Of a stretch of DNA of 64,000 nt, positions 55,210-55,543 are shown in pieces; within the stretch, counting starts at the first letter, position 1; every line of letters begins with the position of its first letter. This stretch comes from Escherichia coli. Lineage in GTDB: Bacteria; Pseudomonadota; Gammaproteobacteria; Enterobacterales; Enterobacteriaceae. The stretch lies in the NCBI RefSeq assembly GCF_024223415.1, contig NZ_CP100500.1; one strand, given 5' to 3'. Position numbers and translations under genes: made by a program. Below the pieces are notes generated by a model. That model made no database searches. It had not been told where the DNA came from and worked only from the letters and a program-made list of their open reading frames with translations.

Positions 55210-55506
55210 CAGAAGCGATCCTCTTGAGGTTTCAGGGAGAGTGCGTGATGCTCATTTCGTAGCCATAATCTAAAAATATCTACATTTCTGAAAAATGCGC
55301 ACAAAAGCGACATATTGTTTTCTTATTGTGATCAAAAACAACAAATTAGTAACATTTAACGTAGGGTATTAAGGCAAAGTGAGACAGGAAATGAATAACT
55401 AAAGCAACAGGTTAGGGGGAGTTACCATCAGAGAACAGATTATCTGGTCGATAAAAAACAGTAAATGGCTTCAATGCAAAATGACCGTTAGTAAACTAAA
55501 CATATT

Positions 55507-55532
55507 ATCTGCCCCGTTTTAGCGGGGCAGAT
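55507..55532 (-). terminator. hairpin terminator after the ygaQ-like gene, ahead of the csiD promoter region
   Basis: atctgccccg-ttttag-cggggcagat, 10-bp perfect stem; minus-strand downstream AT/U-rich. Confidence 0.6.
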
Positions 55533-55543
55533 ATAACATTAAA

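Follow-up and report, generated by a model that had tools for sequence, protein, structure and literature searches.

The window, the whole 64-kb stretch of Escherichia coli DNA analysed here, carries an intact ygaQ-like gene upstream of csiD (also named glaH), both on the minus strand. The ygaQ-like ORF (57796 to 55544 in the ORF list) encodes a 750-amino-acid protein of the alpha-amylase family, with matches to Pfam Alpha-amylase and Alpha-amylase_C. csiD/glaH (55209 to 54232) encodes a 325-amino-acid glutarate dioxygenase, as identified by Pfam CsiD (E = 3e-152) and by the annotation of a near-identical genome and of K-12. It is the first gene of csiD-lhgO-gabDTP, with lhgO and gabD coming after it as in the gene order of annotated genomes. 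The spacer between the two genes (55210-55543) is exactly 334 bp long, and its GC content is 36.5%, vs 50.8% across the whole window. An earlier note on this DNA had given the length and coordinates of the spacer correctly but had placed it between a hairpin and csiD. The 334 bp are the complete stop-to-start interval with the hairpin counted in, and 296 bp separate the hairpin end (55506) from the csiD ATG. All the features named in that note exist, and they are to be read on the minus strand. Farther upstream, a tRNA gene with a CAT anticodon (58356-58431, plus strand) was called tRNA-Met by ARAGORN; it is the orthologue of K-12 ileY, which is annotated as tRNA-Ile(CAU). In K-12, ygaQ is a pseudogene, and nuclease activity of a K-12 YgaQ fragment has been reported in one paper (PMC4725251).

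Past the ygaQ stop codon, the minus strand can form a hairpin, TATCTGCCCCG-CTAAAA-CGGGGCAGATA (55533-55506), with an 11-bp stem containing seven G-C pairs and a 6-nt loop. The hairpin begins 10 nt past the stop codon and exceeds chance: the dG of the stem-loop was -19.9 kcal/mol, that with flanks was -24 (z = -4.6), and none of 200 shuffled sequences folded equally well. K-12 keeps the same hairpin with one change in the loop. Small ORFs in the spacer were rejected, as they are just 20-34 amino acids long and unsupported. A promoter-like match on the plus strand (55481-55508) was also rejected, as such matches were at chance level (1 found vs 2.1 expected). An Rfam search of 54900-55900 on both strands gave zero matches at E <= 1, and thus no known sRNA or riboswitch.

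The gene order ileY-ygaQ-glaH-lhgO-gabD agrees with that of E. coli strain GPEC1446, to which the window is 99.96% identical over 10.5 kb, and, continued to gabT, with that of K-12 (96.3% identity). The spacer matched the K-12 ygaQ-glaH spacer at 97% identity over 381 nt, with a single base difference within about -90 to +20 of the csiD promoter. Judged by this similarity, the region is orthologous to the K-12 csiD promoter, which has been dissected by experiment, and its identification as the csiD control region is based on this orthology, not on a CRP half-site alone. According to the title of Marschall 1998, K-12 csiD is exclusively sigma-S-dependent and requires cAMP-CRP, and PMC6265302 describes control of the csiD operon by cAMP-CRP, Lrp, H-NS, and CsiR. 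ChIP-seq has located CsiR, Nac, and OmpR upstream of csiD, with a CsiR peak in the csiD promoter (PMC5217608). [quoted passage not shown] The CRP-dependent stationary-phase promoter proposed in the earlier note is thus borne out by the orthology and by these reports on K-12.

The putative CRP site is the 22-mer TTTGTTGTTTTTGATCACAATA (55345-55324, minus), with a perfect right half, TCACA (55331-55327), and a poor left half. It differs from K-12 by a single T/C change at 55338, in the weak left half. From its centre (55334.5) and the published -68.5, a secondary citation, we back-calculated the csiD transcription start, and from these we infer all three core positions: the start, an A at 55266, calculated as K-12 position 2788927, that would give a 57-nt leader; a -10 hexamer, TATTTT (55278-55273), followed by the A/T-rich discriminator TAG; and a weak -35 region, TGCGCA (55301-55296), all on the minus strand. 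Just upstream of the 22-mer lies a block, ATGTTAnnnATTTGT (55341-55355, minus, about -89 to -75), that is conserved across Enterobacterales. On the downstream side lies an A-rich element, AAGAAAACAA (55315-55324, minus, about -58 to -49), with a conserved AAACAA core. This element may represent the distal half-site of an UP element, a secondary CsiR site, or both; the title of Germer 2001 mentions a distal UP half-site, and two secondary CsiR sites and a spacing rule have been published (PMC6265302).

Two primary CsiR operators could be assigned within the core promoter. Operator 1, TTGTGCGCATTTT (55304-55292, minus, -38 to -26), overlaps the weak -35 region and fits the published TTGTN5TTTT. 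Operator 2, ATGTAGATATTTT (55285-55273, minus, -19 to -7), contains the putative -10 hexamer and is nearly invariant across Enterobacterales. The published consensus consists of TTGTN5TTTT and ATGTN5TTTT six nt apart, bound by CsiR with a Kd of 10 nM and relieved by glutarate (PMC6265302). Likewise, 6 nt separate the two operators in the window; they are 13-bp direct repeats, recur with a period of 19 bp, and cover the -35 and -10 regions. The tandem pattern TTGTN5TTTT-N6-ATGTN5TTTT occurs exactly and only once in the 64-kb window (55273-55304, minus), with 0 expected. Both operators fall within the published footprint and SPR probes; the footprint, G22-G86, corresponds to 55322-55258 as positioned from primers MS170/MS171. 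Furthermore, ATGGCTACGAAAT (+1 to +13) starts exactly six nt past operator 2 and is a candidate for one of the secondary CsiR sites.

We examined conservation by scanning species-representative genomes, which yielded 80 loci with a gene for a GlaH relative. For 38 enterobacterial loci, the 260-nt sequences upstream of glaH were aligned, and block conservation was taken from the 32 non-Escherichia loci. The conserved blocks were ATGTTA (-90 to -85), TTTGT (-78 to -74), GATCACAA (-67 to -60), AAACAA (-54 to -49), TTGTGCGC (-38 to -30), AAATGTAGATATTTTTA (-21 to -5), TTATGGCTACGAAATGAGCA (-2 to +18), and the Shine-Dalgarno sequence near the ATG. In other genera, including Citrobacter, Salmonella, Hafnia, Shimwellia, and Trabulsiella, these blocks match the CRP half-site, the A-rich element, the operators and the -10 element, the first 18 transcribed nt, and the Shine-Dalgarno sequence.

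The leader combines such conserved segments with a variable one. The transcript start, ATGGCTACGAAATGAGCA (55249-55266, minus, +1 to +18), is near-invariant among loci, and the Shine-Dalgarno sequence, AAGAGGAT (55218-55225, minus), is conserved in all loci, with its GAGG ending 10 nt before the ATG. Between them lies a variable patch of 21 nt (55226-55246, minus), of which the window has a rare allele: 10 of 5372 complete E. coli genomes have it, and all others have the K-12 type. Two Pseudocitrobacter loci, L006 and L008, carry the identical patch, and that of E. albertii is similar. One large recombination import was rejected as the source of the rare allele, as the SNPs show fine-scale mosaicism and no single clean tract. 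A conserved RNA structure in the 57-nt leader was likewise rejected: RNAalifold predicted 0 pairs from 28 distinct leaders, and the single-sequence fold had a z of -0.2. An ATG shared by all 38 loci begins at the inferred start, and in E. coli ATGGCTACGAAATGA (55266-55252, minus) reads as a leaderless four-codon ORF, MATK-stop. The near-invariant first 18 nt might then act as more than a secondary CsiR operator: the csiD mRNA might start with a 5'-terminal AUG, and in stationary phase the mini-ORF might recruit 70S ribosomes and influence how csiD is translated or how stable its mRNA is, a proposal that we consider very doubtful. The stop codon of the mini-ORF is not conserved (AAACGA in several Citrobacter), which makes a function of the peptide unlikely.

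The TGTGA motif itself (55327-55331), quoted in the earlier note on the plus strand, opposite to csiD, reads TCACA on the csiD strand. By itself, it is at chance level and not significant. One perfect half-site pentamer was found in the 334 bp vs ~0.43 expected, and the 16-bp core TGTGA-N6-TCACA was matched at 3 mismatches only, with 175 such matches found vs 216 expected in the window; the scan used a consensus with mismatches allowed and is uninformative by itself. These counts would suit a chance occurrence of TGTGA, with CRP acting elsewhere or only indirectly. However, GATCACA was present in 38 of 38 enterobacterial loci with enough upstream sequence, across genera, and always 48 or 49 bp from the -10 element and operator 2. 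It is from this constancy of position, and not from the motif, that the CRP assignment gains its credibility at the sequence level. In addition, the half-site is the sole perfect one in the spacer, and the published -68.5, counted from it, would bring the start 7 nt past TATTTT and onto the conserved A. We therefore regard a chance motif as extremely improbable and retain the putative CRP site at -68.5.

Whether the hairpin ends ygaQ transcription is less clear-cut. It is G+C-rich and lies soon after a stop codon, the usual place of a terminator, and it passes a terminator scan, though only a lenient one. The stem is not followed directly by an uninterrupted U-rich tract: its tail, AUAUGUUUAGUUUAC, is a poor one, interrupted and with 5 T in the first 8 nt; its weighted T score was 1.37 vs 5.2 for an ideal tract, and the d-score was negative (d'Aubenton-Carafa formula). 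From these sequence features, the hairpin probably acts as a weak intrinsic terminator or else stabilises the 3' end. Alternatively, it may not be a terminator: the stem could protect a 3' end or be left over from the end of the island, and ygaQ transcripts would then be terminated by Rho or simply decay in the spacer. The stable stem without a canonical U-run fits this alternative, and so does Escherichia sp. MOD1-EC7003, which shares the sequence up to 55552 and, without ygaQ, retains a degenerate copy in which the left arm is degraded; the hairpin thus travels with the spacer and not with the gene. However, many functional E. coli terminators have imperfect U-tracts, and this, together with the position of the hairpin and the lenient scan, leaves the alternative unlikely in our judgement, although we give it some weight. 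As the hairpin has no good U-tract, termination may be incomplete and the probable weak terminator could leak. Read-through into csiD is weakly plausible. If transcription of the ygaQ-like gene, or transcription started at the H-NS-repressed sense promoter within it, leaked past the hairpin and added materially to csiD-lhgO-gab expression, the operon would be coupled to the island. Besides the poor U-tract, the intactness of ygaQ in the window and its orientation on the same strand as csiD speak for such a contribution, as does the intragenic ygaQ promoter documented as active in vitro in PMC7229825. On the other hand, ygaQ is an example of an H-NS-silenced, horizontally acquired gene in the same paper, and K-12 shares the hairpin, yet csiD is described there as exclusively sigma-S-dependent and needing cAMP-CRP (Marschall 1998, title), with a mapped, activator-dependent start. 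Such a start is one of the two findings that the earlier note had named as refuting its idea. Moreover, ~240 nt of untranslated AT-rich RNA separate the hairpin from the promoter, and CsiR on -38 to +13 would obstruct read-through too. In the 3'-end mapping supplements examined from PMC7815308, none of the entries concerned ygaQ, csiD, or glaH, which is uninformative rather than negative. We consider a material contribution from read-through quite improbable. csiD would owe its insulation from upstream transcription to weak expression of ygaQ and to the logic of the promoter itself, not to a strong terminator.

The spacer also contains a junction between variable DNA and DNA common to E. coli genomes. 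A ygaQ-type upstream sequence was present in 4079 of 5426 complete E. coli genomes. In 1100 of the 5426, including Nissle 1917, an O25:H4 strain, and O18, ygaQ was absent, and ssrA was followed by a 494-bp spacer and then glaH. In BLAST comparisons, homology with these ygaQ-less genomes sets in at 55407, or about -141. The hairpin lies roughly 100 bp upstream of this point, and the promoter conserved across genera about 50 bp downstream of it. The junction is thereby placed at 55400-55410. GC content falls from about 55% in csiD-gabD to 30-42% from ygaQ onward (30-40% in ygaQ itself). Both the presence/absence polymorphism with its defined breakpoint and this compositional shift are as expected at the boundary of a variable region, and the earlier note's core/island junction, put within or just upstream of the promoter, is thus supported and refined to about -141. 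The island-side spacer (55408-55505, minus) was found only in genomes with the ygaQ-type arrangement; it has no homology in ssrA-adjacent (B2-type) genomes, no Rfam match, and no credible ORF. Nothing obvious in the way of an att repeat, integrase, or tRNA end was seen at 55400-55545. Because the homology starts at 55407, the conserved promoter (-90 to +18) is, by this comparison, wholly on the core side. About 50 bp of shared sequence separate the variable DNA from the conserved regulatory block, so that island turnover leaves the promoter intact.

The history of the junction appears to be more than an insertion. The first ~151 nt of the ssrA-glaH spacer (5517-5667 of locus L003) occur in many other E. 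coli genomes, such as IAI1 and O157:H7, and the remaining ~340 nt are specific to ygaQ-less genomes. Since the ygaQ-less genomes carry their own ~340 nt, the polymorphism is a replacement and not a simple insertion. The label of island gene for ygaQ is reasonable, given its high AT content, its variable presence, and its use in PMC7229825 as a foreign gene silenced by H-NS. In E. albertii, homology begins only at 55357 (-91), and a diverged ygaQ homologue (60% identical) lies upstream at the same position; the association of ygaQ with this place may therefore be old rather than a recent insertion. IS1 copies were seen at the junction in two strains. In strain N9, IS1 is found where ygaQ has its 3' end in the window, at about 55570. 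In strain VE-T9, it directly abuts glaH, the whole promoter is gone, and the annotated glaH CDS is 969 nt vs 978 nt, 9 nt shorter.

We propose that RNA polymerase with sigma-S would start csiD transcription at about 55266 on the minus strand, using the weak -35 region and the -10 element TATTTT. cAMP-CRP would activate from a target with one good half-site centred at -68.5 (55345-55324), and the GntR-type repressor CsiR/GlaR, bound to the tandem 13-bp operators (55304-55292 and 55285-55273), would cover the -35 and -10 elements until glutarate lifted the repression. Upstream, the hairpin would end the ygaQ-like gene, and the boundary between variable, AT-rich DNA and conserved DNA lies at about 55407, with the whole functional promoter on the conserved side. 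The orthology, conservation, motif positions, and junction come from this analysis, and the sigma-S and CRP dependence, induction on carbon starvation, CRP position, CsiR binding, and glutarate relief come from the K-12 literature. We hold this account of the csiD (glaH) control region with high confidence. The control region of this starvation operon is already known in detail and is an ordinary element: a textbook sigma-S-selective, CRP-activated promoter with a known repressor and inducer, which should not be flagged as new.

The closest known system is K-12 csiDp (Marschall 1998, Germer 2001, Metzner 2004, Knorr 2018), which shares with the window the flanking genes (ygaQ and glaH-lhgO-gabDTP), the hairpin, the putative CRP site, the CsiR operators, the -10 element, and the first 20 transcribed nt. 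It differs in the ygaQ pseudogene, the T/C change at 55338, and the leader patch (55226-55246), for which it has the common and not the rare allele. As in class I CRP promoters such as lac P1 (CRP at -61.5), one CRP dimer would sit upstream of a poor -35 region, with an A-rich stretch between CRP and the core promoter. Unlike in these promoters, the csiDp site is at -68.5, and only one of its half-sites matches the consensus; for the position -68.5, PMC2859248 reports a preference for sigma-38, not sigma-70, holoenzyme. As described for GntR/FadR-family operators (CsiR/GlaR, and P. putida CsiR in PMC6667623), the repressor covers the core promoter and glutarate releases it. The direct 13-bp repeats and 19-bp period of the E. 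coli CsiR sites may set them apart from other operators of this family. The junction resembles the ssrA-linked variable region of E. coli in that AT-rich variable DNA containing ileY lies between ssrA and csiD, and ssrA is only about 680 bp from glaH in the 1100 genomes. It differs in that the csiD-side boundary is a replacement polymorphism without an obvious integrase, att repeat, or tRNA end.

Finally, we compared csiD-lhgO-gabD of Pseudocitrobacter (L006, L008, and L013) with 51300-55270 of the window. Nucleotide identity per 100-bp bin was mostly 90-99%, with a lowest value of 82%. Over this stretch, Pseudocitrobacter is about as close to the window as other E. coli strains, which differ mutually by about 4%. 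Upstream of roughly -25, the Pseudocitrobacter and window promoters are just about 50% alike. The pattern suggests that the operon may have been exchanged between genera, the invariant promoter block marking a boundary, and with mosaicism on a fine scale.
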